The notes under the pieces are model-generated. The model did no database searches. It saw nothing but the letters and a program-made list of their open reading frames with translations, and was not told the DNA's origin. A DNA stretch of 64,000 nucleotides from Chlamydiota bacterium (GTDB lineage: Bacteria; Chlamydiota; Chlamydiia; Chlamydiales; JABDDJ01): positions 1,441 through 65,440 of the forward strand of contig JABDDJ010000006.1 in the NCBI GenBank assembly GCA_013287645.1, in the 5' to 3' direction. A program made the position numbers and the translations under genes. This document shows, one piece after another, positions 21,011 to 63,931 of the stretch. Each line of letters starts with the position of its first letter. Within the stretch, counting starts at the first letter, position 1.

Positions 21011-21033
21011 CGTAAGTCATTAAGGAAAAAGAA

Positions 21034-21108
21034 TCTGGGTGAGAGGATTTGAACCTCCGACCCCTTGCACCCCATGCAAGTACGCTAGCCAAGCTGCGCT
21101 ACACCCAG
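21034..21108 (-). tRNA. tRNA-Pro (anticodon GGG)
   Basis: 75 nt, folded by hand: acceptor stem CTGGGTG/CACCCAG (C1-G72), D arm GCGC-AGCTTGGCTA-GCGT, anticodon stem CTTGC/GCAAG with loop ATGGGGT (GGG, G37), T arm GGAGG-TTCAAAT-CCTCT, discriminator A. CCA is not encoded. Confidence 0.9.
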
Positions 21109-21115
21109 ATAAAGA

Positions 21116-23383: not shown

Positions 23384-23433
23384 GGCGACAAGATAACTTT
23401 TTCTTTGTAGGGGAGGCAAGGAAAATTTTTGCT

Positions 23434-40600: not shown

Positions 40601-40986
40601 TCTTTTTAACAGCAATCGAGCAGTACAAGCTACCGATTTTAAATAATTTATTACCAATACACTCCACTTCTGACACTATCTGCATTCATGAAGCCTTTTT
40701 AGATAGTCCAACATCTCAACTAGAAAACTATTTACTCTACTATTCTCAAACACGACAAACACCTTCTCCGCTTATTCCTGAATGGGTCAATGCCATCATG
40801 GAAGGCAATGTGGAAAGACTTCAAAAACTATTCGATAGTGAAGAAAATCAATTTTCTTTTTCTGATGAAACCGTATCCTGGCTCTATCGAAGCGCCCAAT
40901 TACCCGACCCATACCATTTAATTAGTCACTGGCAACCTACTGCACAATTGCTCTACGAATCACTCAAAACTGCTATTGTTTTATGA
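37651..40986 (+). CDS. recC: exodeoxyribonuclease V gamma subunit (RecC)
   Basis: 1111 aa. The N-terminus VYSNRVEVLYEQL...VLVASPAMRSWLQLRMA..LGIAAG parallels E. coli RecC (YHSNRLDVL...ILVQSTGMAQWLQMTL..FGIAAN). Its stop overlaps the recB start (ATGA). Confidence 0.85.
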   Translation: MDMDEVYSNRVEVLYEQLVNQLFFSERQKPFSRRLVLVASPAMRSWLQLRMAYDQRLGIAAGMEMGFVEQTLISLANNSDKLIPSIPTLSLAVEVTLKKILDKDAPYLEPLKKWVGDSKNPQKQIRIIGRELAQLFQRYGTYGDKLIQEWTQKEPDHWQALLWRELFDSAKWSYPAQLLKDARVPLLDSIHLFAVSFVPKCYLEYLKRISETISVSFYLLSPCRAFWTDILSEKHQHYLLKKLEESRVSISQQFALEDLLLDTNPLLANFGRLGREMAEQFEDDVIHPTQQYVISVGCMHHPQYQDLTDYTMQNDLSNTHLTLLHAVQADMALLRTPSEEQRIEIEVADRSIQVHAVPSRWREIEVLYNLLVDAIQQSHNSSDPLTPGDIVVMAPDISAYVSYVRAVFEREGSLLPIRVMDLHLPSQSPYIKAFLILISLGKGDWENRVILELLDSFPFLRKQCWSREDAAVLRRWTTQTSVRWGFDPVHRDKILQANHCVKEMIDRTASGTWQSSLQQLCESLMQSPEEKSLLVEMADSPLLGTWWLFLNKLYNCLQPIINGEQRTIKEWVVFLRTLCEEYLDHDTDNDSAADYKSLLRILQEINSSTQHLSESILPFESISKHIEEALDRVHVSYKEGNLQAVRFCSMLPMRAVPAKIIAMVGMENDSFPKRGQDTTAFDLLKTSDKADYCPRQTDFDRYLFLETVLSARQSLLLLFPGRWKHTAHSSESLPSPLIEELIHYLDRSYTLGGKLPSELIVKEHLLAGYHLKDVSYFAEHYRWANAKYNLPRKEHEPLLGNFVPNHSSNCLGNHVTLEALQSLARNPLKDYFKHVLKTHPDIIHNKHQYLEETFDLKPRDQGLLRSHLLKRPFDQIMMEALHSGKMPFSPLKEMFEYRLQNEDQKFKRQFQEIGITPQSFFTLQFSEHFREPKKTEEGNWSLPPLKIGTWCIEGELSLVTSQGLIVYAQNQWDKLIKSWPAYLVFLTAIEQYKLPILNNLLPIHSTSDTICIHEAFLDSPTSQLENYLLYYSQTRQTPSPLIPEWVNAIMEGNVERLQKLFDSEENQFSFSDETVSWLYRSAQLPDPYHLISHWQPTAQLLYESLKTAIVL

Positions 40987-43900
40987 TAAGCTCATTCGAA
41001 GTCCTATCACGCAACCAGAAGCTAAAGGGCCACCAGCTATTAGAAGCCTCTGCAGGTACAGGTAAAACATTTGCGATCGAAAATTATGTTGTGCGCAGCT
41101 TATTAGAGACAGAGGAGCAGCTAGATCAAATCCTCGTCCTTACCTTTACTAAAGCAGCAGCAAGCGACCTTCAATCTCGCATACGCAATTGCATCGCACA
41201 AACCTCTGCACTGCTATCTAGCAAAAAGAATCCTCCTGACTACCTTAAAGCAATCCTCGAAAAAGATGAAGTAGCTGTCCGTTTAGCTCAGAGATACTTA
41301 CGCCGAGCTCTCTTCTCTTTTGAAAATGCACAAATTTTCACTTTTCACGGATTTTGTCATAAAATTCTTTCCGAATTATCCTTTCTCGATACAAAACAGA
41401 GCCTTTTATCCCGTACAGACATTCGAAGGTCTGTTTTGGACTTTTTCCGGACTGAACTAGACGCCTCATACATGCACCCAGCAGAACTCAACTGCTTATG
41501 GAGAGATAAAAAAACTACTGAAAAAGTCATCGAGGCTCTAGAAGCCCTAATTACCAACGGGACAAACCTTGCCGAATTACCCTCATTCAAAGAAGGCGCC
41601 CAACATTTTTGTAACGTAATCACAGAATGGCAAGAAAGCACACCTTTCACTTCTCACCATGTTTTAAATGATTTTTTAACTCTAGCAAAAAATTATAACA
41701 AAATTTTTGATCGCAACAACCAGCTAAAACCTCACTTTTCTCACTCCATGGGCCGGTTTTCAAGGATGCTAGAACAAGAACCTTCAGCTCAACAATTCGT
41801 ACAAATCATTGAAGATGGCCTTGTCTGGACTGATGCTTTAAATGAGGAGAACTTACGAAAGAAGGCTTCACCCTTAGACACCTCACAACTACTCTACCCC
41901 AATCTAGATGAGCGCGTGCGTCAGGAATTAGCTCCACGCCTATCTCACCATAATGAACCAGCCTATCTTCTGGTCCGTCTTGCAGTCGGAGCGCGTAAGC
42001 TACTTTCTCGCTATGCCGAAGCTGAGCATCGATTTACTCACGACGATCTTTTACGCAAGATGGAAAAAACAGTAGAAGATCCACATATAGCACAACAACT
42101 TCGTGAAAAATACCGCATCGTTATTGTGGATGAGTTCCAAGATACTGACCCCATCCAATGGAATATCCTAAACAAATTATTTTTAGATAGACCTCTGAAT
42201 TGGGATGGCCGTGTTGTCTTGGTAGGTGATCCTAAGCAGTCGATTTATGCCTTTCGGCAAGCTGATATCTACACCTATCTAGATGCTGCACAAACACTGG
42301 GACAAGAGTCTGCAGCTACTTTAGATACCAATTTTAGATCTCATCCAAAGCTTGTAGATGGATTAAATAAATTATTTTGCAGTGGCCTCACTCCTTCGTT
42401 AATCTCACTTCCAGCAGCTGATACATCCATCCCATGCCATCCAGTCAAAGCAGGTCTGCATGATACAGAGCTATCGTTGCTGCCTACACAAGAAGTAGGC
42501 ATCGATGTCATTGCCTCAGCCATACCCAAAAAGAAAAAGAAAATTCTTCCTGAAGAAGAAGTGTTCCCTTTCATTGCGCATGAAATACATCGCCTTTGCA
42601 AAGAATACTCTGTGAGCCCAAATCACTGTGCCATTCTCGTCAATGACCGCTATCAAGGAGAACGCTTAGCCAAAGTACTCAAAGAATGGAATATTCCCTA
42701 TAACCTTCACCGCTCTCACTCCTTAACTAAATCAGCCGCCTTTGAAGCTATCTACGAGCTCCTCGTAGCGATTATTTTCTACCGCGATTTAGCTATTGTT
42801 AAACTAGCATTAGCAGGCGAAATCCTCGGATGGTCCTCTCGACAACTACTCTCTTTAACGGATCAAAATCTCCTAGCTCATGTTCTACAGCTCTTTGCCG
42901 AATGGCATCTAATTCTATCAGAGCAGGGGATTGCCGCCTGTTTTCAAGCTGTAATCAATACTACGTATCAGAATGATCCACGATACACACATGCCGAAAT
43001 CATCCTGATGCGAGAGGAGGGAGAACAGTTCTTTCAGGACATGCTACAGGTGATAGAACTCCTCCTCGAAAACTCTCAACAATCCCTCAACTCTCCTGAA
43101 AAAATTATAGATCTCTTTGATGAACTAGAAGAACTAGAGACCAATGGAGATCCCTCTCTAACTCCTCGAAGCTTTGACAGTAGCCAAGGCGCATCCATCG
43201 TCACTATACACTCCAGCAAAGGACTCGAATACGATATCGTCTTCGCCATCGGTGTTGCTGAACGCTCTAAAGAACCCTCTCAAATCATTGTTAAACATAC
43301 ACCAGAAGGAAGGATTACACTTCCCATTGATGTCAATTCCGAAGAGTACCTCGACCACTGCGCCGAAATCGAAGCGGAAAAAATGCGTCAATTTTATGTC
43401 GCCTCGACACGAGCAAAATACAAACTCTATCTTTTCCTTGCCGCATTCACAGAAAGTATGCCCAAACAACCCACTTTAGGAACAGCCGCACAAATAGAAC
43501 TCTTTTTAAGCCATCTCTCAGGGAATGGAGAAAATATCGAAAACCTCTATAAAGGTATACAAGAACTAAATTTAGATAAGGCTAAAAAATTAATTGAAAA
43601 AATAGATCCCTATCAAGAGTCTATTCGTTATCATGAGTTAAACCCACAGAGCTCACAGAGACCACAGAGTAAAGCAAATTCTCTTTGTGATCTCTCTGGT
43701 TTTATATCTCCACCTCCACCACCCCAATTTAATTTTCCCGCTTTTCATATCTCCTCTTTCACCTCTCTTACCTCACATCTCGAAAAGCCAAAACTACATG
43801 CTTCAACACCACAACATTTAAATGACACACTCATTCAATCTCCTCATACCCTTCCAGCAGGTCCAGAAACTGGAATCATCCTTCACTCTCTTTTTGAAAA

Positions 43901-44405
43901 AATCGACTTTTCAAAAGCCAATGATCAATCGTATCTCGATAGACAACTCATTAAAAGCATTGAAACTTCCAACTTGGCTCAATGGAAAGAAATTCTTTTA
44001 ACAATTGTCTATGCGACCCTCTCAACCAATATAGAAGGTTTCAATCTCACCCAAATAGACCCGCAACTCTCTTTTCGCGAAACAGAATTCCTATACTCCT
44101 CCGAACCCACCCAGCTCATCAAAGGTGTCATCGACCTCTTTTTCAACCATCAAGGCAAATACTATCTCATCGATTGGAAAAGCAACTGGCTCGGACCAGA
44201 TGACTCCTACTATGACTCACACCATATCTCCAAAGCTATGGAAGAGCACAACTACTACCTCCAAGCCAACTTTTATAAAAATGCATTAAAAAAATATACT
44301 TATCTTTTCGATAAACGTCCCTTTGAAGAACACTTCGGAGGCATCTACTACCTATTCTTAAGAGGATTACCCAGTGGAAAAGGCATCTACAAACTACATC
44401 AATAA
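40983..44405 (+). CDS. recB: exodeoxyribonuclease V beta subunit (RecB helicase-nuclease)
   Basis: 1140 aa with SF1 helicase motifs ASAGTGKTF, IVDEFQDTD and TIHSSKGLEYDIVF, plus a C-terminal PD-(D/E)xK nuclease block VIDLFFNHQGKYYLIDWKSN. Confidence 0.9.
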   Translation: MISSFEVLSRNQKLKGHQLLEASAGTGKTFAIENYVVRSLLETEEQLDQILVLTFTKAAASDLQSRIRNCIAQTSALLSSKKNPPDYLKAILEKDEVAVRLAQRYLRRALFSFENAQIFTFHGFCHKILSELSFLDTKQSLLSRTDIRRSVLDFFRTELDASYMHPAELNCLWRDKKTTEKVIEALEALITNGTNLAELPSFKEGAQHFCNVITEWQESTPFTSHHVLNDFLTLAKNYNKIFDRNNQLKPHFSHSMGRFSRMLEQEPSAQQFVQIIEDGLVWTDALNEENLRKKASPLDTSQLLYPNLDERVRQELAPRLSHHNEPAYLLVRLAVGARKLLSRYAEAEHRFTHDDLLRKMEKTVEDPHIAQQLREKYRIVIVDEFQDTDPIQWNILNKLFLDRPLNWDGRVVLVGDPKQSIYAFRQADIYTYLDAAQTLGQESAATLDTNFRSHPKLVDGLNKLFCSGLTPSLISLPAADTSIPCHPVKAGLHDTELSLLPTQEVGIDVIASAIPKKKKKILPEEEVFPFIAHEIHRLCKEYSVSPNHCAILVNDRYQGERLAKVLKEWNIPYNLHRSHSLTKSAAFEAIYELLVAIIFYRDLAIVKLALAGEILGWSSRQLLSLTDQNLLAHVLQLFAEWHLILSEQGIAACFQAVINTTYQNDPRYTHAEIILMREEGEQFFQDMLQVIELLLENSQQSLNSPEKIIDLFDELEELETNGDPSLTPRSFDSSQGASIVTIHSSKGLEYDIVFAIGVAERSKEPSQIIVKHTPEGRITLPIDVNSEEYLDHCAEIEAEKMRQFYVASTRAKYKLYLFLAAFTESMPKQPTLGTAAQIELFLSHLSGNGENIENLYKGIQELNLDKAKKLIEKIDPYQESIRYHELNPQSSQRPQSKANSLCDLSGFISPPPPPQFNFPAFHISSFTSLTSHLEKPKLHASTPQHLNDTLIQSPHTLPAGPETGIILHSLFEKIDFSKANDQSYLDRQLIKSIETSNLAQWKEILLTIVYATLSTNIEGFNLTQIDPQLSFRETEFLYSSEPTQLIKGVIDLFFNHQGKYYLIDWKSNWLGPDDSYYDSHHISKAMEEHNYYLQANFYKNALKKYTYLFDKRPFEEHFGGIYYLFLRGLPSGKGIYKLHQ

Positions 44406-46035
44406 TCTCTGGGAAAATTGGCCGCTCCTCCAACAAGCGCTTTTTCAAGGAACCATCGAGCCAATTGATCTAATTCTCGCTCAAACAATCCTAGGTTCAA
44501 ATTCCGCCGACCTCTATCCCGCTGCCTGCACACTTTGCCACCTCCTCCTAGCTACTCGCGAAGGGCATCTCTGCATTCAAAAATTCAATAATTCCATTTA
44601 TCCCGAACCAACCGAACTACCCTCAAGCCTCATCCTCCAAGGATTTGACCAACTTCTAACATTACCCTCCAATCCCTATATCCACTTTTGGGGACACTCT
44701 CTCTATCTCCAATGCTACTGGCATTACGAAAACTCATGCATCAAACTCTTCCAACAACACGAATCTCTCACTCCAACGCACCATGTAGACGAAGCCCATT
44801 TCGCATCCCTCCTAGCCAAAAACCCCAATCTTCTCCCAGAACAATCCGACGCAATCTGGAAAATCCTCCACCACACCATCACCCTAATCACAGGAGGCCC
44901 AGGCACAGGAAAAACCTACACCGCCGGCTGTCTCATCAAAATCCTCTGGAACTCTCTACAACCCATTCAAAAACAAAATTACCAAATCGCCCTCGCCGCT
45001 CCAACCGGAAAAGCTGCCTCCCATCTACTCCAAAGCATCTCTCGCTTCATCGGCGAAGACTCACTGCCACTCGCTGCAACCACCCTTCACACACTCTTAG
45101 AACTATCACCCTATTCCAAAAAAACTCCCAAACTCACCCAAGACCTTATCCTCGTCGACGAAAGCTCCATGGTTGACATAAAACTAATGGAAACCCTTCT
45201 CAAAGCCCTAAAGCCAGGAGCCAGACTCATCCTTCTCGGAGACCATCGCCAACTCCCACCTGTTGAACCTGGTGCCCCCTTTTTCGACCTCATCAATTTC
45301 CGCTCACAATCCTCCAAACCCTCTCAACAGCCTGCTTTCTTAAAAAAATGTTTAAGGGCCGAACTCCAAGAAATCATTCACTTCGCCGATGCCATCAATC
45401 AAGGAGACGAAATCTCTATCCTTAAAATGCTCCAATCATCCAACTCTCCCATTAACGGAAAAATCCTTCCTCCAACCGAACAGTACAATTCTACCATCGA
45501 ACAACTCGCCCACAAATTTCCAATCCTCACTCAACCTGATTCTTCAGCATTAAAATCTTTTCGCATTCTAACTCCCTTACGAAGAGGACTTTGGGGAGTC
45601 GAACACATCAACCGACATATCCATTCCCATTTCCTCAAACGCGTTCCTCATGGAACCACACCCCTCATTCCTATCCTCCTTGTCGCCAATGACCACCTCC
45701 TCAAACTCTATAATGGCGAAATGGGGTTCCTCAAAGGAAATCAAGCCTACTTCCCCACGACAGAAAACGCTTGGCGCACCGTCCCAGCCGCAATACTTCC
45801 ACGCTACCAATATGGCTACTGCCTCTCCGTCCACAAAAGCCAAGGTAGCGAATTTGACCATATCACCGTCCTTCTCCCACCAGGATCCGAAACCCTAGGT
45901 CGAGCCGTCCTTTATACAGCCGTAACACGCGCTCGCCATTCCGTCGAATTATGGTACGAACCCAGCACTCTCACCCAGACCATAAAAAAAGAATACCCAC
46001 GACTTTCCAATTTTTCAGAAAAAATGTATCAATAA
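44374..46035 (+). CDS. recD: exodeoxyribonuclease V alpha subunit (RecD)
   Basis: 553 aa with ITGGPGTGKTY, LILVDESSMVD, LGDHRQLPPV and SVHKSQGSEFD. It overlaps recB by 32 nt. Confidence 0.9.
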   Translation: MEKASTNYINNLWENWPLLQQALFQGTIEPIDLILAQTILGSNSADLYPAACTLCHLLLATREGHLCIQKFNNSIYPEPTELPSSLILQGFDQLLTLPSNPYIHFWGHSLYLQCYWHYENSCIKLFQQHESLTPTHHVDEAHFASLLAKNPNLLPEQSDAIWKILHHTITLITGGPGTGKTYTAGCLIKILWNSLQPIQKQNYQIALAAPTGKAASHLLQSISRFIGEDSLPLAATTLHTLLELSPYSKKTPKLTQDLILVDESSMVDIKLMETLLKALKPGARLILLGDHRQLPPVEPGAPFFDLINFRSQSSKPSQQPAFLKKCLRAELQEIIHFADAINQGDEISILKMLQSSNSPINGKILPPTEQYNSTIEQLAHKFPILTQPDSSALKSFRILTPLRRGLWGVEHINRHIHSHFLKRVPHGTTPLIPILLVANDHLLKLYNGEMGFLKGNQAYFPTTENAWRTVPAAILPRYQYGYCLSVHKSQGSEFDHITVLLPPGSETLGRAVLYTAVTRARHSVELWYEPSTLTQTIKKEYPRLSNFSEKMYQ

Positions 46036-46039
46036 AGAC

Positions 46040-46786
46040 ATGAAAGGAAAATTTAAAATTGTCGTCCCCTCCTTCAATAGCGTGGAGTATCTACCCAAAA
46101 CCCTCCGCTCCATTGAAAGCCAAATCAACAAAAACTTTGACGTCTGCGTTATCGACGACTACTCCTCACTCAAACAACAACGCAGTATCATCTTAGATTT
46201 TTGCCAAAGAAACCATTGGAAATATATCTTCCATGACACCAATGTCGGAGCCCTTGCCAGCATCGTCGAAGGCATCCAACACCTCCAATGCAAAGATGAC
46301 GACGTCATCGTCATGCTCGATGGAGATGATTGGCTCTACGACTCTCACGTCCTCACCAAACTCGACAAAATCTACACAGAAGAAGACGTCTACCTCACTT
46401 GGGGACAGTTTGAATCCTATCCACCCCATGTCATCAATATCAATTATGCAGAAGACATAGACGACCATATCATCGATGAAAAACTCTACCGCACAATTAC
46501 AGACGTCTTTTGCCACCTCAAAACTTACAAATACCGCCTCTACCGCGAAATTAAAGACAAAGACCTACGCGACCAAAATGGAAAATACTTCCTCGTCTCA
46601 TGGGATAAAGCACTCATGTATCCCATGCTCGAAATGGCAGGACACAAAGTCCGCTTCGTCCCAGATACCCTATATGTATACAATATCGATAACCCCCTTA
46701 ACGACTTCAAAGTCAACCGAGAAGAACAGATCGAAGCCACCAACTACATCAAAAACAAAAAACCCTACAAACTCCTCAAACTCTAA
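46040..46786 (+). CDS. family 2 glycosyltransferase
   Basis: 248 aa with KIVVPSFNSVEYLPKTLRSIESQ, VIDDYSS and the DXD-type MLDGDDW. Confidence 0.8.
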   Translation: MKGKFKIVVPSFNSVEYLPKTLRSIESQINKNFDVCVIDDYSSLKQQRSIILDFCQRNHWKYIFHDTNVGALASIVEGIQHLQCKDDDVIVMLDGDDWLYDSHVLTKLDKIYTEEDVYLTWGQFESYPPHVININYAEDIDDHIIDEKLYRTITDVFCHLKTYKYRLYREIKDKDLRDQNGKYFLVSWDKALMYPMLEMAGHKVRFVPDTLYVYNIDNPLNDFKVNREEQIEATNYIKNKKPYKLLKL

Positions 46787-46801
46787 CACTAAGGAATACC
46801 C

Positions 46802-47647
46802 ATGCGCTATTTACTCCTCTTATTAACCACACTATCTTTAACTACCCATCTACAAGCTATCGAAGAACAAATAAAAGATCCAAAACTCTATAAACAAGTA
46901 CTAAGTTATAATCCCCAACTCGTTAACAGCTATTACTATGACCCCATACCACTAGAAGAATTCGTAGAATTCCTTAACATTTACGAAAATAGACCCATCG
47001 AAACAAACATCTGCGGAATGCGTTCAGAAGGAAATTTCTTCCTATGGCACCTCCTCCGAAAAATCAAACCCTCACTCGTCATCGAAAGCGGAGTATGGAA
47101 AGGACAAAGCACCTGGACAATAGAACAAGCCGTACCTGAAGCAGAAATCATTTGCATGGATCCCGATCTAACTAACAGAATTTACATCTCTCAAGACGCA
47201 TTCTATACAACCACCGACTTCTCAGAATATGAGTTTGATCTCCCTGAAGGAAAACCCGTTGTAGCCTTCTTTGATGACCATATCAACGCCTATGATAGAG
47301 TTCTACAATGCTCCGTCAAAGGAATCAAACACATCATATTTGATGATAACTACGCACCAGGATTCGACGACTGCGTCCCCGGACACCTCACCCTCCGAGA
47401 TTGCTTCGAAATGGGAGAACACCGTGGCAAAGCAGCCGTACTTAAACACATCATCAAACGCTATGCCATCACTCCACAGATCGTTGGAAGAATGGTAAAA
47501 TACTTTCCCAACAGCAAAGCTGACAGCAACCAACCAGCCCTCTGGAAAACCCTAAACGAAATTGACCCATCAATACGCAATCGTATGAAAGTCTTTTACA
47601 ACGACGGAGCACGCTACAGATGGCTCACCTATGTAGAGTTATACTAA
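46802..47647 (+). CDS. hypothetical protein, methyltransferase-fold candidate (CmcI/TylF-like)
   Basis: 281 aa. Leader peptide; VIESGVWKGQSTW and AFFDDH...IIFDDN blocks resemble those of the MTase at 56451-57131. Confidence 0.5.
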   Translation: MRYLLLLLTTLSLTTHLQAIEEQIKDPKLYKQVLSYNPQLVNSYYYDPIPLEEFVEFLNIYENRPIETNICGMRSEGNFFLWHLLRKIKPSLVIESGVWKGQSTWTIEQAVPEAEIICMDPDLTNRIYISQDAFYTTTDFSEYEFDLPEGKPVVAFFDDHINAYDRVLQCSVKGIKHIIFDDNYAPGFDDCVPGHLTLRDCFEMGEHRGKAAVLKHIIKRYAITPQIVGRMVKYFPNSKADSNQPALWKTLNEIDPSIRNRMKVFYNDGARYRWLTYVELY

Positions 47648-47658
47648 CCTGTGTGAAT

Positions 47659-54311
<6,653 letters not shown>

Positions 54312-54452
54312 ATTCTGAGTTCAAAGGGTTTTTCATAAGTACAATAAATTGTTTAAATAAGTATTTCAATCAAAAAATTTGACAAAATTGATATGAATAT
54401 TTTTACTTGTCATGCAGGATGCAAAATTTAAAAATGATTTTAAGAGTGAGAT

Positions 54453-55499
54453 ATGAAATATCTGTTTTTGGTTTTTGTGTCAGGGTTAGTTTTATTTGTA
54501 TCGGCTATATCCGCTAGTATTCAAGGTATTTTAATTGCAAAGCCTATTGATAAACTGGTCATTTCAACTAAAAGAATCTACCTTCCCAGCTATCCTGGAG
54601 CATATAATCCCTCTATTATTAAGTTTAAAGAGGGTTATTTGATGATTTTTAGATACCTTCCGAGTCGGTATCATCAGCCTTGGCTCTCATGCATAGGGGC
54701 TGTATTACTGAATAATTCGTTTGAACCTATTTCGCATACTCAGTTGATTGACACTCGTTTTAATGATAAGAGAACGTTTTCGCAGGCTGAAGACCCGCGT
54801 GTGTTTAGTTTCGATGATAGGTTGTTTTTAATTTACAATGATAACATGGAAAAGATGTATCCATCGCTTCAGGATAGGCGTGACATGTATATTGCAGAGC
54901 TTTTTTATTTGCATAAGCAGTTTTTTATCTCTGATCCGGTTAAGTTGGTGCATGAATCGAGGTATGATACGGTTCTTTGGCAGAAAAATTGGAGTCCTTT
55001 TGTTTGGAATGGGTCTTTACTGTTCTCTTATTCGATTAATCCGCATGAAGTGGTCATTCCTGATCTTTCTACAGGTATTTGTAAAAGGGTATATGAAACA
55101 AATAGAGCGCTTTCTTGGAATTATGGGACGTTAAGGGGGAGTGCACCTGTTCAATTAGTCGATGGGGAATATTTGGGATTTTTTCATTCTGGAACAGTAA
55201 CTAGGACTACTTCTTCGGATAATAGGGATATGTGGCATTACTTTATGGGTGCTTATACTTTTGCTGCTGAGCCCCCTTTTGAATTGACAAAGATCAGCCC
55301 ATTTCCGATTGATTCGCTAGAGTTTTATACTTATTCGAGCTATGAGAAGCGTGTGATTTATCCTGGTGGGTTTGTGGTGGATGGCTCAAATCTTTATTTG
55401 TCATATGGAAAGGATGATTCGGAAATTTGGATTGCAACGATTGATTTAAATGCTCTTAAAGACTCACTGGTACCAGCTCATGAGATACAATACAGATAG
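54453..55499 (+). CDS. GH130/DUF377-like beta-propeller protein (glycoside phosphorylase/transferase-fold candidate)
   Basis: 348 aa with a signal peptide. AYNPSIIKFKEGYLMIFRY and AEDPRVFSFDDRLFLIYND blocks. Paralogous to the C-terminus of the 707-aa protein. Confidence 0.55.
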   Translation: MKYLFLVFVSGLVLFVSAISASIQGILIAKPIDKLVISTKRIYLPSYPGAYNPSIIKFKEGYLMIFRYLPSRYHQPWLSCIGAVLLNNSFEPISHTQLIDTRFNDKRTFSQAEDPRVFSFDDRLFLIYNDNMEKMYPSLQDRRDMYIAELFYLHKQFFISDPVKLVHESRYDTVLWQKNWSPFVWNGSLLFSYSINPHEVVIPDLSTGICKRVYETNRALSWNYGTLRGSAPVQLVDGEYLGFFHSGTVTRTTSSDNRDMWHYFMGAYTFAAEPPFELTKISPFPIDSLEFYTYSSYEKRVIYPGGFVVDGSNLYLSYGKDDSEIWIATIDLNALKDSLVPAHEIQYR

Positions 55500-56436
55500 T
55501 AGAACGTTAATTAAATTCTTTACTTTGTTTTTTGTTCTGCTATATGGACTTCTTGTAGCAAAATTGGAAGATCACTTTAAAATCCCTTTGGACAAATCGG
55601 GGCCTCATCAGATACGCAATATCGACTTTATTTATATGCTTAATTTGGATGAGCGGCCGGAGAAATTTATGCATTCTGTTGACGAATTGGCTCCTTATGG
55701 GATTACGCCGTTTCGTTTTTCAGCTGTCAATGGTTGGGAGCTTTCCTATGAAGTGATAGATGATGTTGGGGTTAAATATGTGCCTTGGATGAAACAGGGT
55801 TTGATGGGAACCTGTTATTTTCCTGAGTATGAGGGAGAGCCTTTTCATGAAGTGATGCAGGTGATGGGAAGGAACTATTTTTGTCACTGTATGGCGAGAG
55901 GGGCTATAGGAATTATTTTGAGTCATCTATCTATTCTTAAAGATGCGTATGATTCTGGTTATGAAACGATTTGGGTGATGGAAGATGATGTTGAGGTGAT
56001 TAAGGATCCTCATTTGATGTCAGACCTTATTGAGAAACTAGATAGCCTTGTGGGCAAGGATGGATGGGATTTTCTGTTTACTGATCAAGACACTAAGGAT
56101 CAGAATGGCCAGTACGTACCCTGTTTGGGGCATGCCTTACGACCAAATTTTACGCCTAGCAATCCTTATAAATTTTTAGAACGAGTAGATATTAGCCCAG
56201 AGTTTAGAAGGGTAGGAGCCCGTTACGGGGCATATTCGATGATTGTAAGAAGGTCTGGAATGAAGAAAATGCTTGACTTTACCCGTGAAGGGATTTTCTT
56301 ACCTTACGACATGGAATATACCCTACCGGATGATATTCGTATGTACAATGTACGCGAAGATGTTGTTTCGACTCAGCCGAGAGCTCTTTCAGACAATGGA
56401 GCGCCCAATTATAAGCATAAACTCATTGCACACTGA
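55480..56436 (+). CDS. family 25 glycosyltransferase
   Basis: IDFIYMLNLDERPEKF...ITPFRFSAVNG and GAIGIILSHLSILKDAYDSGYETIWVMEDDVEV fit the GT25 pattern. The probable start is Met11 of the ORF that opens at 55450. Confidence 0.75.
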   Translation: MRYNTDSRTLIKFFTLFFVLLYGLLVAKLEDHFKIPLDKSGPHQIRNIDFIYMLNLDERPEKFMHSVDELAPYGITPFRFSAVNGWELSYEVIDDVGVKYVPWMKQGLMGTCYFPEYEGEPFHEVMQVMGRNYFCHCMARGAIGIILSHLSILKDAYDSGYETIWVMEDDVEVIKDPHLMSDLIEKLDSLVGKDGWDFLFTDQDTKDQNGQYVPCLGHALRPNFTPSNPYKFLERVDISPEFRRVGARYGAYSMIVRRSGMKKMLDFTREGIFLPYDMEYTLPDDIRMYNVREDVVSTQPRALSDNGAPNYKHKLIAH

Positions 56437-56450
56437 ACAGGAGTTATTTC

Positions 56451-57131
56451 ATGGATCTATATGATCATCAAGGCGATAAACCAGACTATCATTATGAATG
56501 TATCGAGATGGTATCGAATACTAATATACTAGCTCAGAGGTCGAAAGAGGTAGCATTTAACTACATGGACCATTTGGAGGGCTGGTGTACACATAATAAG
56601 GCTTCCGTTTTAGTGGATTTGATTTTTATGTTGAAGCCTAAAATTGTAGTAGAAATCGGTGTGTGGGGAGGAAAGTCTTTGGTTCCAATGGGCTTAGCTC
56701 TTAAAGTCAACGGAAGAGGAAAAGCCTACGGAATAGACCCATGGGATTCTGGGGCCTCATCTGAAGGGATGGATGGTGTGAATTATGACTGGTGGAGTCA
56801 GGTGGATCATCAAATGATATTACGAGGACTACAGGCAAAAATTAGTGAATATAATCTACAAGCAAATATAGAGCTGATTAAGTCTACATCTGAGAATGCT
56901 CCATTAATTCCGAATATTGATATTTTGCATATCGATGGTAACCATTCTGAAAAGGCAGCAAATTTAGATGCTCATAAGTGGGTTCCTTTAGTGAGAAGGG
57001 GAGGAATTATTATTTTTGACGATATTACTTGGGGAACGACGGCGAGTGCGGTTAAGTGGATGGATGAAAATTGTATTCGGTTAGCCGAATTTCATGAAGA
57101 TAATGACTGGGGCATTTGGGTAAAGCCTTAA
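56451..57131 (+). CDS. class I SAM-dependent methyltransferase (Methyltransf_24-like)
   Basis: 226 aa with VVEIGVWGGKS and ILHIDGNHSEKAANLDAHKWVPLVRRGGIIIFDDI. Confidence 0.8.
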   Translation: MDLYDHQGDKPDYHYECIEMVSNTNILAQRSKEVAFNYMDHLEGWCTHNKASVLVDLIFMLKPKIVVEIGVWGGKSLVPMGLALKVNGRGKAYGIDPWDSGASSEGMDGVNYDWWSQVDHQMILRGLQAKISEYNLQANIELIKSTSENAPLIPNIDILHIDGNHSEKAANLDAHKWVPLVRRGGIIIFDDITWGTTASAVKWMDENCIRLAEFHEDNDWGIWVKP

Positions 57132-59493: not shown

Positions 59494-59820
59494 ATGAAAA
59501 ATATTCTATTCTCACTTATTTTTTCAGGGCTTTTAGCAGGCAGTACAGCCGCTTATTCTCAAAATGCAAATCCAAATCCTAACTATTCACCTCATCCAAT
59601 GACACCCCAAACAGGTGACTATGGCAATGGTTCTAGCCAAGAGAGCGCTATTTTACGTAACTTCGAACAGCAGCGCAATTCTATCCTCAATGCCAGTGAA
59701 GGGGCATCAGATACGGATACCAACTCATCTCAGGAAGAGAGATTAAAAAGCCGTTCTATTAGACAGCAAGATGAGATCATGCAGCGCTCTTTACGACAGC
59801 AGCAAGAACTCAATCGTTAA
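59494..59820 (+). CDS. small secreted protein
   Basis: 108 aa with a signal peptide and a Q/N/S-rich mature part. An AAGGAG RBS lies upstream. Confidence 0.45.
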   Translation: MKNILFSLIFSGLLAGSTAAYSQNANPNPNYSPHPMTPQTGDYGNGSSQESAILRNFEQQRNSILNASEGASDTDTNSSQEERLKSRSIRQQDEIMQRSLRQQQELNR

Positions 59821-61255
59821 CATCTGAACCAAACCAAGTGCCTTCCCAAAGATGGATTGCAAGGGTTTCAGGCTGAATAAATTCAATAAATTTATTTACA
59901 GTAGCTGACCTAGCGACCCAGGGCATCGGATAGAAGTAAGAGCTTGGCAAAATAAGTATATTTTCTTCACCCTGAAAAAGAAGAGTCTCATTACACGCTT
60001 TTGTCACAGGCCCTGGACCTGATCTCTCACACAGAATCAAATCACCCGCTTCATCAGACGGGATAGAGTAGTCCATGCTTCGTTTCATGACAGAGCTATT
60101 TTTTGCTGCGCCGAGAATAGCAGTTCCAATGCGAGGATTAACAAATTCAGCAATACAGTTACCTTCATAGCAGGCAAAAAAGGTTAATCCATTTGAAACA
60201 AGGTCCTCAAAGGAATTGAGGCACACTGCATCGATATCGCTATAGATACCTCCATATTGATAGAGCAGCTCACAACGTAAAATGTCCGATTTCTCAGCCC
60301 AGCTAATCGATTTTTCAAAAAAAGATTGTGAATGAGGTGTCGACCAACTAAAATTTTCAATCTCTTGATCTGTCCAAAGCTTAATATCCCAATCAGGGTG
60401 GTATTTTTTCCACGATTCAACGGCTAAATTAACTCTACGAGTAGGTGGAGAGCCCAACCAAATTAAATGGATCAGATGAGGGATAGAGGGTTCTAAAGTA
60501 TGTGCAGAGCCAGTTAAAAATCTTTCACAAAAATGGTTATATCGCTCTTCAGCTAGCTTAACGTAAATGTCCTTAGTATAGCATTCATCTTGGGGAGGTA
60601 AGTTTATTTCAAGAGACTTTCGAAATGAAGTAGGCAAAAAGCCTTCAGATTTAGGCTTTAAGGCTAATAAAACTTCCATCGTAGAGTCTACAATAGACAC
60701 TGGAACTCTGTAGGGGCTACGAGTTCTCAATTTTAAAAATGCTTTATAAAACGAGAGAGCAATCTGCTTAAAATCTTCTTTAGAAGTATCTTGAAGTGTT
60801 AAGAGAATACCTTCTCTTAAATATTCTTCAGACGGCTTTAACTTTCTAGAACGCAATTGCGAGTCTAACTGGTCTACTCTCTCTTTTAACGGAAGCTTTT
60901 TATCTTCCTCATTTTCAGAAAAATAGAAACAAGTAGCTGCTACAGATAAATAAAAATTGCATTTACCATTTAATAGGATTTCAAGATCACTCTTTTCAGG
61001 AGGTCTTCCTAAATAAGCTTCTAGGAATATTTTTTCCTGATCAGGCGACATATTAGTAGTCACACATAAATAACCCAAGTCATTGTAGAAATTGTTGAAA
61101 GGCCAATTTATGAGTCTTTTCATCGAGATAGCAAATACAGAAGGATATGCCACACCTGATTCTAAACCCATTCGATACGAATGTAGAATTTTATCTGTAA
61201 GCTTAGGAATTCCAGGAATAACTATTTCGTGAACGTAAGGTGCAGCCAAATCCAT
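59810..61255 (-). CDS. GT32-type (DXD sugar-binding) glycosyltransferase, effector-like
   Basis: 481 aa. The C-terminal half has IPHLIHLIWLGSPP, WKKYHPDWDIKLW and YGGIYSDIDAVCL (Och1/TcdA-TcdB-type Gly_transf_sug motif). The N-terminal ~230 aa resemble a kinase-fold C-lobe remnant (NDLGYL...SPDQEKIFLEAYLG). Confidence 0.7.
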   Translation of the reverse strand: MDLAAPYVHEIVIPGIPKLTDKILHSYRMGLESGVAYPSVFAISMKRLINWPFNNFYNDLGYLCVTTNMSPDQEKIFLEAYLGRPPEKSDLEILLNGKCNFYLSVAATCFYFSENEEDKKLPLKERVDQLDSQLRSRKLKPSEEYLREGILLTLQDTSKEDFKQIALSFYKAFLKLRTRSPYRVPVSIVDSTMEVLLALKPKSEGFLPTSFRKSLEINLPPQDECYTKDIYVKLAEERYNHFCERFLTGSAHTLEPSIPHLIHLIWLGSPPTRRVNLAVESWKKYHPDWDIKLWTDQEIENFSWSTPHSQSFFEKSISWAEKSDILRCELLYQYGGIYSDIDAVCLNSFEDLVSNGLTFFACYEGNCIAEFVNPRIGTAILGAAKNSSVMKRSMDYSIPSDEAGDLILCERSGPGPVTKACNETLLFQGEENILILPSSYFYPMPWVARSATVNKFIEFIQPETLAIHLWEGTWFGSDVND

Positions 61256-61262: not shown

Positions 61263-62582
61263 CTATATGCAATTTAGTATCTTTGGAAAGTATGGGAGCT
61301 CTTTTGCACAAAAAGTGCTCCAAGCATTCAATTTTACATCATTAATTGCCTTAATACCAAATAAGAACTCGGCACTTTTTAACAGAACCATTCTCCCTTC
61401 GTGCGTGGTCATATCGATGGAAAAGAAATCCTCACTGTTCTTCCATACACTTACAACAAAAAATTCAATATCGGCTCTCTCAATCATCCATAAGGGTAAT
61501 CCAGGATAGCCATGAATTTCCGGAGTATTGAACTGACGAGAAACAAAGTTTAGAATATGTTGAAAAGGCTTATAGTATGCAAGTCGAGTGGAATCATTAA
61601 GGTATTTAAATAATTTTATAAACTCAGTAATAGAATCTTTAGATGATTTTAACGCTATAATTTTTTCTTTAACACACTTCAAAGCCAGCTTAACAGGCTC
61701 TTCTTCAGAATATTTATCAAAGTCAGCTTGAAATCCTAATGTTTTTCCCGCTAATACTTTTTTAGCTAACCATAGATGCATGGATGAAAAACGTTTATGC
61801 TTGAGTAATTCACCATAGATTAAGTTAGCATCCTGTGTACGAAGAACCCTCTCAAAATCAGTGCAAAAGTCTTGAAATTTTTGATCCTTCATGCGAATGC
61901 AACTCGCAAAAAATGTTAGTTCATGACCTTCTAATTTTTTTTCTATTTCAGAAGGAGCAAAGACCTGTTGACGAACATCCATCACTCTATTAAGTGGTGA
62001 GAATCTTCGAAGATCAAGTAGCTTAATGCCCTCTTTTAGAGAATTATATTCTGGAAAGGTGTTACTTACTAATGCACAGTAAATCTTAAGCCTGTTTAAT
62101 GCTGTTTGAGAAGCCACCACCTTCTCATGATCATCAGAGCGTTGAGATCTGTTATAGAACTCACTCAGATATGCCAGTCCCAAATTCAGTTTTTCATATT
62201 TATGATGAAGATAAGAAATAAAGTCTTTATCCTCGATTTTTAATCGAGTTAATTCAGGTGCATAGGACGTTAAAAAATCAATGAAATCTTGGATATGTTT
62301 AGCATCATCACTTCTTTCCCAACCAAAGATACTAGAAACAGATAGAGGAGCCAATTGATAAATTAAGCCGCTATTTTTTGGTATGAATCTAAGAGTAGAA
62401 ATATCTAAGGACAATGGTGTAACTGAATTTAGTCTATCCTCTTCTATAAACCTTTCTGAGAGCGCATTTTTAGATATAGTACCAATATTTTCTAAAATTA
62501 AATCTTTTATTTTGTTTACATCATTCGTGTTCTTTAGATTTAATTTTGCAGCATATTCAAGAAATACATTTGTAACAGCCAT
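61263..62582 (-). CDS. orphan family protein, tandem paralogue 1
   Basis: 439 aa. It aligns end-to-end (roughly half the residues identical by eye) with the 62603-63931 product. There is no signal peptide. Confidence 0.6.
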   Translation of the reverse strand: MAVTNVFLEYAAKLNLKNTNDVNKIKDLILENIGTISKNALSERFIEEDRLNSVTPLSLDISTLRFIPKNSGLIYQLAPLSVSSIFGWERSDDAKHIQDFIDFLTSYAPELTRLKIEDKDFISYLHHKYEKLNLGLAYLSEFYNRSQRSDDHEKVVASQTALNRLKIYCALVSNTFPEYNSLKEGIKLLDLRRFSPLNRVMDVRQQVFAPSEIEKKLEGHELTFFASCIRMKDQKFQDFCTDFERVLRTQDANLIYGELLKHKRFSSMHLWLAKKVLAGKTLGFQADFDKYSEEEPVKLALKCVKEKIIALKSSKDSITEFIKLFKYLNDSTRLAYYKPFQHILNFVSRQFNTPEIHGYPGLPLWMIERADIEFFVVSVWKNSEDFFSIDMTTHEGRMVLLKSAEFLFGIKAINDVKLNAWSTFCAKELPYFPKILNCI

Positions 62583-62602: not shown

Positions 62603-63931
62603 TCAGCTGGAAAGAAAAGCTTGAATTTTGGAAAACTCGGGAAGCTCTTTTGCACAAAAAGATTGCCACTCTTTAAGTCTTTTAACATCAATTTTTCGAT
62701 CAGCAAAAAGAAATTCTGCGCTTGTTAGCAAAATCATTCTTCCTTCATGCGTAGTCATATCAATGTTGTAAAAGTCCTTATTCTTCAGCCACACATTGGC
62801 AATAAACTGATTAAAATCGTTATCTCCAGTAATATGCAGTGGCAAGCCTGGGTATCCTGCAATCTTAGGGGTTTTATAATGATCAAAGACAAAGTTTAAG
62901 ATATGCTGAAAAGGCTTATAATGTTCTATACCGCTATGATCTCTCAGAAATTTACTTAATCTCATTAGTTTATCTAGAGGCATTAGAGCAGACTTTAGTT
63001 CAATAATTGTATCTTCAACGTATTTTAGAGCCTGTTTGACAGGCTCTCCAGCTGTGCGTTTATCAAACTCCTCCTGAGATTCAAATTGCCTTGGTTTCAG
63101 TATTTTGCTTACCAACCAAAGATGCATCGATGAAAATCGTTCATTTTTGAGCAGTACAGAATAAATTAAATCCGCATCTAGTGTAGAAAGAATTTTTTCA
63201 AATTTTTCACAAAAATCCTTTAATTCAAGATCCTTCATGCGGATACAGCATGCCAGAAATGTGATTTGCTTATCTTCCAATTTTTCTTCTACTTCCGATT
63301 TCGCACACCTATATTTTCTTACATTTATTACACTTTCTAGTGCAGAATATCTTTCAATTTCGAGTATTTTCATTGCCTTATGAAGAGAGTAATTTTCTGA
63401 AGAGATATTCCCCAATAAACAACAGCAAGTATCAAACCTTGTCAGAGCAACCTGAGAAGCATTGACAATTTGGTGATCCAATGTGCGTTTGGATCGGTGA
63501 TACGCTTCACCTAAATAGACGAGTCCCCAATCCAATGTTTTATATTTATTATGAAGATAAGGAATGAAATCTTCATTGCGTACCTTGAGTTGAGTTAATT
63601 CAGGTGCATAAGAGGTTAAAAAATCAAAAAAATCAGAAATATGTTTAGCGTCATCACTACAGCACCAACCAAACCGACTCGCAATAAACGAGGGAGTCCA
63701 TTGATAAACGTAGCCAGTATTTTGAGGAACAAATCTGAGAGTAGTAAGATTTAAGGAGAGAGGTTTGACTAAATCCATTTTATCACGATCTATACAATTC
63801 TCAGTGAGAGCATTTTCGCCGATAGCATTAATGTTATCTAATATGAGATCTTTAATTTTGTTAACATCTTCCTGGGTATTTAGATTTAGCTTAGTAGCGA
63901 AACTTAAAAATACATTGGATGTCGAGCCCAT
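62603..63931 (-). CDS. orphan family protein, tandem paralogue 2
   Basis: 442 aa. Shared blocks DVNKIKDLIL, DDAKHI.DF.DFLTSYAPELT, FSSMHLWL, HYKPFQHILNFV, GYPGLPL and MTTHEGRM.LL.SAEFLF. Confidence 0.6.
   Translation of the reverse strand: MGSTSNVFLSFATKLNLNTQEDVNKIKDLILDNINAIGENALTENCIDRDKMDLVKPLSLNLTTLRFVPQNTGYVYQWTPSFIASRFGWCCSDDAKHISDFFDFLTSYAPELTQLKVRNEDFIPYLHNKYKTLDWGLVYLGEAYHRSKRTLDHQIVNASQVALTRFDTCCCLLGNISSENYSLHKAMKILEIERYSALESVINVRKYRCAKSEVEEKLEDKQITFLACCIRMKDLELKDFCEKFEKILSTLDADLIYSVLLKNERFSSMHLWLVSKILKPRQFESQEEFDKRTAGEPVKQALKYVEDTIIELKSALMPLDKLMRLSKFLRDHSGIEHYKPFQHILNFVFDHYKTPKIAGYPGLPLHITGDNDFNQFIANVWLKNKDFYNIDMTTHEGRMILLTSAEFLFADRKIDVKRLKEWQSFCAKELPEFSKIQAFLSS

Follow-up and report, generated by a model that had tools for sequence, protein, structure and literature searches.

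A collagen-like fibre gene of an environmental chlamydia within a candidate O-glycosylation cluster

Introduction

BclA of Bacillus anthracis/cereus has a GXT-rich collagen-like region followed by a C-terminal BclA_C domain, and its threonine residues bear O-linked oligosaccharides that include methylated sugars. SunS, ThuS and GmaR belong to the GT2 enzymes, carry helical repeat domains and each glycosylate one specific peptide or protein. Their acceptors differ, being Cys of a bacteriocin or Ser/Thr of flagellin, the latter for the Listeria flagellin O-GlcNAc transferase GmaR; SunS/ThuS are named glycocin S-glycosyltransferase in PDB and NCBIfam entries. In Clostridioides difficile, SgtA consists of a GT-A domain and a TPR domain, its gene is immediately upstream of bclA3, and in vitro it puts beta-O-GlcNAc on the collagen-repeat threonines of BclA3 (PMC7157674). 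In Mimivirus, a GLT25D1-like domain of L230 glycosylates viral collagen (PMC9614988).

The gene cluster

The window analysed here is a stretch of 64,000 nucleotides from an uncultured amoeba-type chlamydia. It contains seven neighbouring genes (Table 1), which a preliminary description took to be a single functional module of about 11 kb. All seven are intact open reading frames with the positions and folds proposed there. The proposal of one module is supported by comparative genomics for the right-hand part of the block, while GT2 46040 and ORF 46802 can be placed in it only by adjacency. We consider it somewhat probable that the region 47659–57131 serves to O-glycosylate a BclA-like collagen fibre that is secreted and trimeric; the individual steps are inferred below.

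Table 1 Features of the cluster, in window positions
Feature	Position	Strand	Basis
GT2 glycosyltransferase (GT2 46040), no leader	46040..46786	+	PF00535 Glycos_transf_2, E 2.9e-18
Signal-peptide protein with class I methyltransferase fold (ORF 46802)	46802..47647	+	AlphaFold2, Foldseek, motif
BclA-like collagen-like fibre protein	47659..52173	-	ORF, composition, PF01391 and PF18573, DNA repeats
707-aa enzyme: hydrophobic leader, GT2 (GT-A fold, DAD motif), TPR, GH130-like 5-bladed propeller	52188..54311	-	Pfam, NCBIfam, PDB sequence matches, AF2, Foldseek, synteny
Divergent intergenic region between the two cluster arms, 141 bp	54312..54452	.	One sigma-70-like match per strand
Stand-alone GH130-like propeller with signal peptide, paralogue of the fused domain	54453..55499	+	Pfam, alignment, synteny
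GT25 glycosyltransferase, N-terminal hydrophobic leader, EDD (DXD) motif	55480..56436	+	PF01755, profile match
Class I SAM-dependent methyltransferase (Methyltransf_24, MT24), no leader	56451..57131	+	Pfam, E 2.7e-20

The collagen-like fibre protein

The fibre protein is a Thr-rich collagen-like protein of 1,504 residues, with an N-terminal hydrophobic Sec-type leader (signal peptide). It contains 425 GXY triplets, with Thr at Y in 378 of them, so that the earlier estimate of several hundred potential O-glycosylation sites is correct. In total there are 443 Thr and only 11 Lys. The collagen repeat family PF01391 is matched, and the C-terminal domain is a BclA_C (C1q/TNF-like) domain (PF18573, 43.9 bits, cut-off 38). 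The protein thus resembles Bacillus BclA in both its GXT-rich region and its C-terminal domain. It differs in having a Sec leader in place of the exosporium-targeting N-terminal domain and in being about 4 times longer, and the bacterium that encodes it does not form spores. Among the ORFs examined there was no rhamnose or anthrose operon. The DNA of the gene has a 27-nt period (~111 copies, with only 72% matches) and also diverged 69-nt repeats. The repeat array is old and diverged, and an assembly artefact is not obvious.

The three-domain enzyme

The enzyme gene lies upstream of the fibre gene. Its stop codon is at 52188–52190 and the collagen ATG at 52173, which gives the spacer of 14 nt that had been described. 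AlphaFold2 models the protein with a pLDDT of 92. Its best matches are SunS/ThuS and GmaR, both in sequence (PDB matches to GmaR at 2.5e-7 and SunS at 1.6e-6) and in fold (Foldseek, SunS/ThuS, E 5e-13), the matching part being the N-terminal half, residues about 20–390. The identity to these enzymes is only 14–19%, and they differ from the chlamydial enzyme in being cytoplasmic and in having no propeller domain.

The C-terminal part has weak Pfam support, with the fused propeller falling below the Pfam cut-off. Foldseek matches it to GH130 phosphorylases (4udk, 1vkd, 5ayd; E 2e-10) and to Leishmania MPT-2 (6q4z, 1e-6). The GH130 beta-mannoside phosphorylases/synthases and the Leishmania GT108 MPT mannosyltransferases share this five-bladed propeller fold, at a very low identity of 11–14%. 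In contrast to them, the chlamydial enzyme joins the propeller to a protein glycosyltransferase in one chain and bears a leader.

The likeness to SgtA is one of layout: a GT-A (GT2-type) domain is followed by TPR, and next downstream of the gene comes a collagen-like gene of the BclA type with Thr-rich GXT repeats. SgtA has 358 residues, no GH130-like propeller and no leader, whereas the chlamydial enzyme has 707 residues in three domains. Moreover, SgtA and BclA3 belong to a Gram-positive spore former, which builds the fibre in the cytoplasm of the mother cell, while in the chlamydia both enzyme and fibre have Sec-type leaders. The 707-residue enzyme is proposed as the initiating protein O-glycosyltransferase for the GXT repeats.

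Linkage of the enzyme to collagen-like genes

The surroundings of the enzyme were compared in 78 homologous loci from Chlamydiota, Verrucomicrobia-labelled MAGs, Chloroflexota and Myxococcota. A Thr-rich collagen-like ORF was found within 10 kb in 34 of these 78 loci and in 0 of 80 control loci (p = 3e-13, the control loci being taxonomically broader and the test loci phylogenetically non-independent). Such ORFs become about 25-fold less dense farther from the enzyme gene: there are 19 per 100 kb at distances of <500 bp, and 0.7 per 100 kb at 6–10 kb. Outside the PVC group, 12 of 14 enzyme loci have such an ORF within 10 kb, and in most Chloroflexia/Thermomicrobiales loci it ends 94–274 nt upstream of the enzyme on the same strand. 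Giant-virus contigs carry the same enzyme, three of them with a Thr-rich collagen-like ORF directly adjoining. In the other 44 of the 78 loci, many with short flanks, no collagen-like ORF was present in the available flanks; in three of these a collagen gene lies farther along the same contig.

Could the adjacency be a coincidence, with no functional relation between the genes? In the compact genomes of chlamydiae, genes without a common role can be close neighbours: GT2 46040 starts 4 nt after recD, and fpg follows MT24 with a gap of 0 nt. Nor does the cluster keep a constant position with respect to recBCD and fpg among loci. Against this stand the synteny statistics, the decay with distance and the recurrence in four bacterial phylum-level groups and giant viruses, which already disfavour coincidence and make it very improbable. 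The comparison of genomes thus argues strongly for an enzyme–collagen linkage across phyla. Since genes for similar collagen-like proteins adjoin that of the three-domain enzyme in several phyla of bacteria and in some giant viruses, the enzyme probably coats such fibres with sugar.

The divergent arm

The sigma-70-like matches in the intergenic region are consensus matches only. The stand-alone propeller is recognised as GH130 (PF04041, 40 bits, cut-off 26) and, as had been suspected, is a paralogue of the fused domain (22% identity over 321 aligned positions, E 1e-8). The ED-x-R motif is kept in both propellers; in the stand-alone protein it is E113-D114-x-R116, which aligns with EDPR of GH130 enzymes. 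The family profile matches beta-1,2-mannoside phosphorylases at 3.7e-4. The GH130-like domains might also be hydrolases, or non-catalytic sugar binders.

The GT25 (PF01755, 31.7 bits, cut-off 24; alternative ATG at 55450) had been likened to the animal collagen transferases. The likeness holds for the family, in that the profile matches human procollagen galactosyltransferase 1 (COLGALT1, GLT25D1; E 6.5e-10) in an alignment that includes the EDD motif, but not for the mechanism. COLGALT1 and Mimivirus L230 act on hydroxylysine. Because the fibre has so few Lys, and no lysyl-hydroxylase or 2OG-oxygenase family is matched by any of the seven genes of the cluster, hydroxylysine galactosylation by this GT25 was ruled out, which leaves a sugar or Thr/Ser as the acceptor. 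MT24 also has weaker matches to CmcI and rhamnosyl O-MTase families.

These three genes recur with the enzyme: among 64 PVC enzyme loci the propeller is present in 31 (adjacent to the three-domain enzyme in 26), GT25 in 27 and MT24 in 23. A search centred on GT25 gives a different picture. It confirmed 271 relatives among GTDB species genomes, often with several copies per locus, and 78 chlamydial loci were kept. The three-domain enzyme is present in only 16 of them and a collagen-like ORF within 10 kb in only 10, with the collagen gene farther along the same contig in at least three cases. MT24 adjoins GT25 in 36 of the 78; such pairs far outnumber collagen genes and are mostly away from them. 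GT25 and MT24 are thus in part conserved without a collagen gene, an observation that counts against a single dedicated module.

These counts favour a rival reading in which only the three-domain enzyme is dedicated to collagen, the other five genes being a general chlamydial envelope glycan or general protein glycosylation system that is often parked nearby. Chloroflexia, Polyangia and viral loci have enzyme and collagen and none of the accessory genes, and Pfam describes GT25 as an LPS biosynthesis family. Against it stand the direct adjacency of propeller and enzyme in 26 of the 64 PVC loci and the frequency of collagen genes near GT25, which is far above that in the 80 control loci. Furthermore, a gene-by-gene inspection of two relatives, whose three-domain enzymes have 66% and 60% identity to this one, places the collagen gene in the other cluster arm: in L001/L029 it is co-oriented directly behind propeller-MT24, and in L003/L009 it is convergent on MT24 and adjoins it. 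We regard a general system as unlikely, though a good deal less so than coincidence. For the propeller, GT25 and MT24, a link to the fibre has moderate support, from their recurrence with the enzyme in chlamydial relatives, although they often occur with no collagen gene nearby.

A proposed pathway

A dedicated O-glycosylation module is favoured by the 14-nt spacing of enzyme and fibre genes together with the putative divergent promoter region between the arms; by the resemblance of the enzyme to the peptide-glycosylating GT2-TPR enzymes SunS/ThuS and SgtA; by the cross-phylum synteny, with a linkage that is rearranged but retained (L029, L009); by leaders that co-vary between enzyme and collagen; and by the recurrence of the accessory genes in PVC loci and the ED-x-R motif in both propellers. 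The acceptor would be the fibre protein, with its about 380 GXT threonines. The enzyme gene, just upstream, is probably co-transcribed with it. The TPR domain would hold the repetitive acceptor, and the GT2 domain, which resembles those of SunS, GmaR and SgtA, would attach a first sugar to Thr; by analogy with SgtA this sugar may be HexNAc from a UDP-sugar. The fused propeller would then add or edit a second sugar, probably of the beta-mannoside type, and the divergent operon would extend and O-methylate the glycan. GT2 46040 and ORF 46802 may contribute.

The left-hand genes

ORF 46802 has no match in Pfam or NCBIfam. Its AlphaFold2 model (pLDDT 90.5) resembles class I O-methyltransferases of the cation-dependent type (Foldseek E 2e-7, TM 0.41–0.53), and its motif ESGVWKGQS can be aligned with EIGVWGGKS in the methyltransferase nearby. 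The gene converges on the collagen gene, with 12 nt between the two stops. Its relatives are spread over many phyla; 0 of 80 of their loci are near a Thr-rich collagen-like ORF, and only 4 of 80 match another gene of the cluster, weakly. For GT2 46040, only 1 of 84 loci has it close to the cluster. The sole pointer to module membership of these two genes is their adjacency.

Leaders and compartment

Sec-type leaders are present on the three-domain enzyme, the stand-alone propeller, GT25, ORF 46802 and the fibre. Among homologues they are found in 42 of 44 propellers and 127 of 149 GT25, and in only 4 of 53 MT24. In PVC genomes both enzyme and collagen have them; in Chloroflexia, Polyangia and viruses neither does. 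Leaders on the transferases would place Leloir-type enzymes where no supply of nucleotide sugars is known in a bacterium, and they count against a glycosylation module.

It is worth adding that a GT92 elsewhere in the window also bears a Sec-type leader, that GT25, GT92 and GT10 genes are clustered together in relatives, and that a TcdA/TcdB-like DXD glycosyltransferase is located 3 kb away.

An alternative is that the leader-bearing transferases are secreted effectors acting on host or inclusion substrates, and not cytoplasmic enzymes for the bacterium's own fibre. Such effectors would derive from mainly eukaryotic enzyme families. The widespread leaders, the clustering in relatives and the TcdA/TcdB-like neighbour would all fit. 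We nevertheless consider effectors improbable. The fibre also bears a leader, so that it would still share a compartment with the enzyme; the TPR domain and SunS-like fold point to a peptide acceptor encoded next door; and in free-living Chloroflexia and Polyangia, leaderless homologues are found directly beside collagen-like genes.

Organisation of the gene cluster

The window comes from an uncultured chlamydia (Chlamydiota), and the seven genes of the cluster lie between housekeeping genes, with recC, recB and recD upstream and fpg downstream. All of them are intact ORFs, and Pfam together with AlphaFold2/Foldseek confirmed the folds attributed to them in the preliminary description. A scan for promoters and terminators gave no more matches than in shuffled sequence, and the operon structure is therefore read from gene spacing only.

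Genes of the cluster, with window positions
Gene	Position	Strand	Description
GT2	46040-46786	plus	PF00535, E 2.9e-18; starts 4 nt past recD
ORF 46802	46802-47647	plus	Class I methyltransferase fold by model
Collagen-like fibre gene	47659-52173	minus	1,504 residues: hydrophobic leader, GXY region, BclA_C domain
Three-domain enzyme (GT2 + TPR + GH130-like)	52188-54311	minus	707 aa
Stand-alone GH130-like propeller	54453-55499	plus	PF04041, 40.0 bits (cut-off 26)
GT25	55480-56436	plus	PF01755, 31.7 bits (cut-off 24)
MT24 (Methyltransf_24)	56451-57131	plus	Class I SAM-dependent methyltransferase, E 2.7e-20, 73.7 bits

The functional statements made here draw on sequence, predicted structure and synteny. 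On this basis, the best-supported reading is that the cluster would be a module dedicated to O-glycosylating a BclA-like fibre, resembling the SgtA-BclA3 system but built around a different three-domain enzyme. It had been proposed that the whole block of ~11 kb makes and decorates a glycosylated fibre as one module. This holds in a graded form: the case for the predicted enzyme-fibre pair is strong and that for the propeller, GT25 and MT24 is moderate, while for GT2 and ORF 46802 nothing beyond adjacency speaks for membership.

The fibre protein

The GXY region contains 425 triplets, with threonine at position Y in 378 of them (a composition count), and matches PF01391. It follows a hydrophobic Sec-type leader (23 residues) and ends in a BclA_C domain of the C1q/TNF-like type (PF18573, 43.9 bits against a cut-off of 38, E 2.7e-11). 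The fibre shares with BclA the long region dominated by GXT (GPT) triplets and the BclA_C trimerisation domain. It differs in that the N-terminus carries the Sec-type leader and no exosporium-targeting domain, and in coming from a chlamydia rather than a spore-forming Firmicute.

The DNA repeats of the gene have a 27-nt period with 72% matches. They are thus diverged, so that the array is not an obvious assembly artefact. Three other long ORFs overlap this array (48111-51281, minus; 48296-51289, plus; 51385-52098, plus). They were dismissed as artefacts of reading the repeats in other frames; the leader, GXY periodicity and BclA_C domain are found only in the frame of the fibre gene.

Spores of Bacillus and Clostridioides are known to bear collagen-like glycoprotein fibres that have a transferase of their own. 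A literature search found no paper on collagen-like proteins in Chlamydiae. With ~380 potential glycosylation sites, the fibre would represent a major surface structure, so far unstudied, in environmental chlamydiae; it is a candidate adhesin or amoebal uptake signal.

The three-domain enzyme

The AlphaFold2 model of the three-domain enzyme, built on 59 homologues, has a pLDDT of 92 and a pTM of 0.86. Four segments follow one another from the N-terminus: the leader helix, the GT-A domain, the TPR region (helices at residues ~203-386), and a C-terminal domain (residues ~395-700) made up entirely of β-strands, which is predicted to form a five-bladed propeller. The GT2 domain matches PF00535 (34.5 bits against a cut-off of 23.3), and its DxD motif, D124-A-D126, is invariant or nearly so among homologues. 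Several TPR families in Pfam match the enzyme, all below their own cut-offs, and the TPR region also matches designed TPR proteins and the TPR domain of OGT. Foldseek relates the first half of the protein to the glycocin S-glycosyltransferases SunS and ThuS (E 5e-13), and by sequence the N-terminal part matches GmaR (2.5e-7), the O-GlcNAc transferase of Listeria flagellin, and SunS (1.6e-6). SunS, ThuS and GmaR each have a specific peptide or protein as acceptor.

By architecture and gene context, the closest characterised analogue is SgtA of C. difficile. SgtA has a GT-A domain and four TPRs, is encoded immediately upstream of bclA3, and puts β-O-GlcNAc on collagen-repeat threonines in vitro (PMC7157674). 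Like transferases of the SgtA/GmaR/SunS type, the three-domain enzyme has a GT-A GT2 domain with a DxD motif followed by a TPR region, and its gene adjoins that of its putative protein substrate: the fibre ATG begins 14 nt past its stop codon, and the synteny is recurrent. A literature search returned nothing relevant on a GT2-TPR-GH130 fusion linked to collagen-like proteins.

For the fused propeller, the Foldseek matches are GH130 β-mannoside phosphorylases (E 2e-10) and the GDP-mannose-dependent mannosyltransferase MPT-2 of Leishmania (E 1e-6); its PF04041 score of 21.7 bits falls below the cut-off of 26. The stand-alone propeller is a paralogue, with 22% identity over 321 aligned positions (E 1e-8). 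Both carry an E-D-x-R motif that is invariant among homologues (E113-D114-x-R116 in the stand-alone and E497-D498-x-R500 in the fused domain), and this motif pairs with the EDPR of three GH130 structures, in low-scoring segments only. The Asp of the EDPR motif is presumably the catalytic residue of GH130. A purely decorative role for the propellers is conceivable, but the invariant motif and its low-scoring alignment to EDPR make it more likely that both domains are catalytic.

Linkage of the enzyme to collagen-like genes

A scan of genome contigs with the single sequence of the three-domain enzyme gave no loci, and an alignment was needed as query. With the alignment, 78 loci were recovered from GTDB species, each represented by one genome. 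The comparison loci lie mostly on MAG contigs, which are possibly chimeric and phylogenetically non-independent. The 78 loci span Parachlamydiaceae, Waddliaceae and Rhabdochlamydiaceae, MAGs labelled 'Verrucomicrobiae', Chloroflexia/Thermomicrobiales and Polyangia. The closest relatives of the window proteins (60-66% identity) are in Parachlamydiaceae MAGs.

Collagen-like ORFs were defined as six-frame ORFs with at least 12 GXY triplets and at least 50% Thr at Y. Such an ORF is present in 34 of the 78 enzyme loci (available flanks, 0.95 Mb in total) as against 0 of 80 control loci (1.31 Mb) built around ORF 46802 homologues, a set taxonomically broader than the test set (Fisher's exact test, p = 3e-13). 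Two further results agree with that from the broader control. Collagen-like ORFs become sparser with distance from the enzyme gene (19 per 100 kb at less than 500 bp, 0.7 per 100 kb at 6-10 kb), and within chlamydiae they occur in 22 of 64 enzyme loci versus 4 of 62 GT25-centred loci without the enzyme (p = 1e-4).

Outside the PVC group, 12 of 14 enzyme loci have a collagen-like ORF. Most Chloroflexia/Thermomicrobiales loci have one to three short tandem GXT ORFs; the last of these has the same orientation as the enzyme gene and stops 94-274 nt upstream of it. The Polyangia locus has the two genes in convergent orientation, with 18 nt between them. In five Chloroflexia loci (L055, L057, L063, L066 and L070, at ~7000-9900) the tandem ORFs directly upstream of the enzyme gene encode ~215-290 aa without a C-terminal globular domain, and are preceded by a Gly-rich paralogue of GGTGG type.

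In both chlamydial relatives inspected gene by gene, the collagen gene lies within the cluster, at a position different from that in the window. In one (L001/L029, 66% identity in the three-domain enzyme) the propeller, MT24, collagen and GT92 genes are co-oriented; in the other (L003/L009, 60%) the collagen gene is convergent on MT24. Three loci counted as having no collagen-like ORF have such a gene farther along the contig (L040, L064 and L034, in the overlapping loci L173, L174 and L262 respectively), which came to light by chance contig overlap. Synteny with relatives bears out one part of the earlier proposal, in that the enzyme-fibre linkage recurs across phyla, and not the other, since the comparison loci show no conservation of GT2 or ORF 46802 around the cluster.

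A scan with an alignment of five collagen C-terminal domains gave 10 loci. The MAG loci L171 and L176 (Candidatus Acheromyda pituitae; Verrucomicrobia SZAS-8) have four tandem paralogous GXT genes with a C-terminal domain of the chlamydial type, and no three-domain enzyme within 10 kb.

The family of the three-domain enzyme is large, with 2,969 clusters at 50% identity (E <= 1e-30). Most of the top 150 clusters are matched over most of the query length, with some shorter variants lacking the GT2 or the propeller. Relatives that match only residues ~205-706 (TPR and propeller) include L059, L060, L064, L073, L078, P0249 and P0262, and the GT2-less proteins in the protein library have ~505-535 aa. 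IMG/VR adds 343 contigs with the enzyme, many labelled as giant-virus MAGs (GVMAG), where it is a full-length, leaderless protein of 31-37% identity. A Thr-rich collagen-like ORF is present in 8 of the 80 viral loci examined (within L085-L164) and adjoins the enzyme gene in three (L085, L095 and L110). No GT25 relatives were found in viral contigs, in a scan limited by its search pattern and so not proof of absence. For the uncharacterised three-domain family, the cross-phylum linkage suggests a testable substrate.

Accessory and left-hand genes

The DXD motif of GT25 (E168-D169-D170) is invariant among homologues, and the family profile matches human procollagen galactosyltransferase 1 (COLGALT1; E 6.5e-10), with the DXD aligned to FEDD. 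The preliminary description had drawn a parallel with the animal collagen transferases. A hydroxylysine-type galactosyltransferase is ruled out, because the fibre has only 11 lysines in 1,504 residues and none of the seven cluster genes has a Pfam match to a hydroxylase or 2OG-oxygenase family.

The stand-alone propeller occurs in 31 of the 64 PVC enzyme loci (adjacent in 26), GT25 in 27, MT24 in 23, and all three in 16. Conversely, 78 loci centred on GT25 contain MT24 in 47 cases (36 adjacent) and the propeller in 32, as against only 16 with the three-domain enzyme and only 10 with a collagen-like ORF. GT25-MT24 is a tight pair, much commoner than the collagen genes; it may plausibly be dedicated to the fibre. 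Conservation of the transferase and methyltransferase genes without collagen had been named as evidence against a module. This applies in part to GT25-MT24, while the enzyme-fibre link stands.

ORF 46802 has no Pfam or NCBIfam match. Its AlphaFold2 model (pLDDT 90.5) resembles class I cation-dependent O-methyltransferases (Foldseek E 2e-7, TM 0.41-0.53), and its ESGVWKGQS is aligned to motif I of the neighbouring methyltransferase; the profile search against PDB reached only 0.011.

In L001, a GT92 gene (4395-5327) is directly downstream of the collagen-like gene, and the locus also has a GT10, three GT25 and two Methyltransf_21 genes. The window has a GT92 with a signal-peptide-like N-terminus at 22484-23419 (minus), 24 kb from the cluster.

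Leader sequences and the cellular compartment

The N-terminus of the three-domain enzyme resembles a Sec signal in PVC genomes. Leaders are likewise frequent among homologues of the stand-alone propeller (42 of 44) and of GT25 (127 of 149), and rare among those of MT24 (4 of 53). In every PVC locus where both N-termini are complete (about ten, plus the window), enzyme and collagen-like ORF are both leadered. The homologues of the enzyme in Chloroflexia, Polyangia and viruses start directly at the first GT2 strand, and the collagen-like ORFs there have no Sec leaders, some having a Tat-signal-like RRRALA motif. This shared presence or absence is further circumstantial evidence that the enzyme and its putative substrate work together.

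Leaders on GT-A transferases pose a puzzle as to the source of the sugar donors: we know of no obvious donor supply in the bacterium for Leloir-type GT-A enzymes outside the cytoplasm. ORF 46802, which would be a SAM-dependent fold behind a signal peptide, is part of the same puzzle. It is conceivable that host-derived nucleotide sugars in the inclusion act as donors. A much wider reading, which we consider improbable, makes the GT2-TPR-GH130-like protein a 'collagen-fibre glycosylase' of ancient origin, dedicated to such fibres and common to PVC bacteria, Chloroflexota, Myxococcota and the giant viruses that infect amoebae. The chlamydial pathway, in which the enzyme, propeller, GT25 and fibre carry leaders, would in this reading be extracytoplasmic: Leloir-type glycosylation would run in the periplasm or inclusion lumen on host-derived nucleotide sugars, and would yield a glycan-coated fibre on the infectious particle. 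This fibre would promote amoebal uptake, a role also proposed for mimivirus fibrils.

Other features of the window

The protein of 481 aa encoded at 59810-61255 (minus) has no leader and has a C-terminal match to DXD glycosyltransferases (Gly_transf_sug, 3.8e-16; TcdA_TcdB catalytic domain, 7.7e-7); it may act as a glycosyltransferase effector on host targets. On the same strand, two ORFs of comparable length (439 and 442 aa) and visibly similar sequence come before it, neither with a significant Pfam match (61263-62582 and 62603-63931, both minus).

A cysteine-rich protein of 524 aa (36025-37599, plus) has a signal peptide, a run of seven histidines and no Pfam match, and is presumably similar to porin-like outer-membrane proteins found in environmental chlamydiae. 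Near the L001 cluster lie genes for two proteins of comparable size (523 and 529 aa), again with no Pfam match.

A gene at 6941-12265 (minus) encodes a non-ribosomal peptide synthetase module of 1,774 aa, with condensation, adenylation, carrier and thioesterase domains. At 12677-14881 (plus), a Bro-N domain gene is followed by a phage-type integrase, with tRNA-Pro (21033-21109, minus) 6 kb away, and this region may be the remnant of an integrated element. A PEP phosphomutase (17428-18237, minus; E 6.6e-80), whose family carries out the first step in making phosphonates, adjoins an Ada-type methyltransferase/regulator. The GC skew is strongly negative (-0.17 to -0.44) at 40000-48000, across recB, recD, GT2 and ORF 46802, even though these lie on the plus strand, and turns positive from 52 kb on, with the cumulative skew peaking at ~40 kb.
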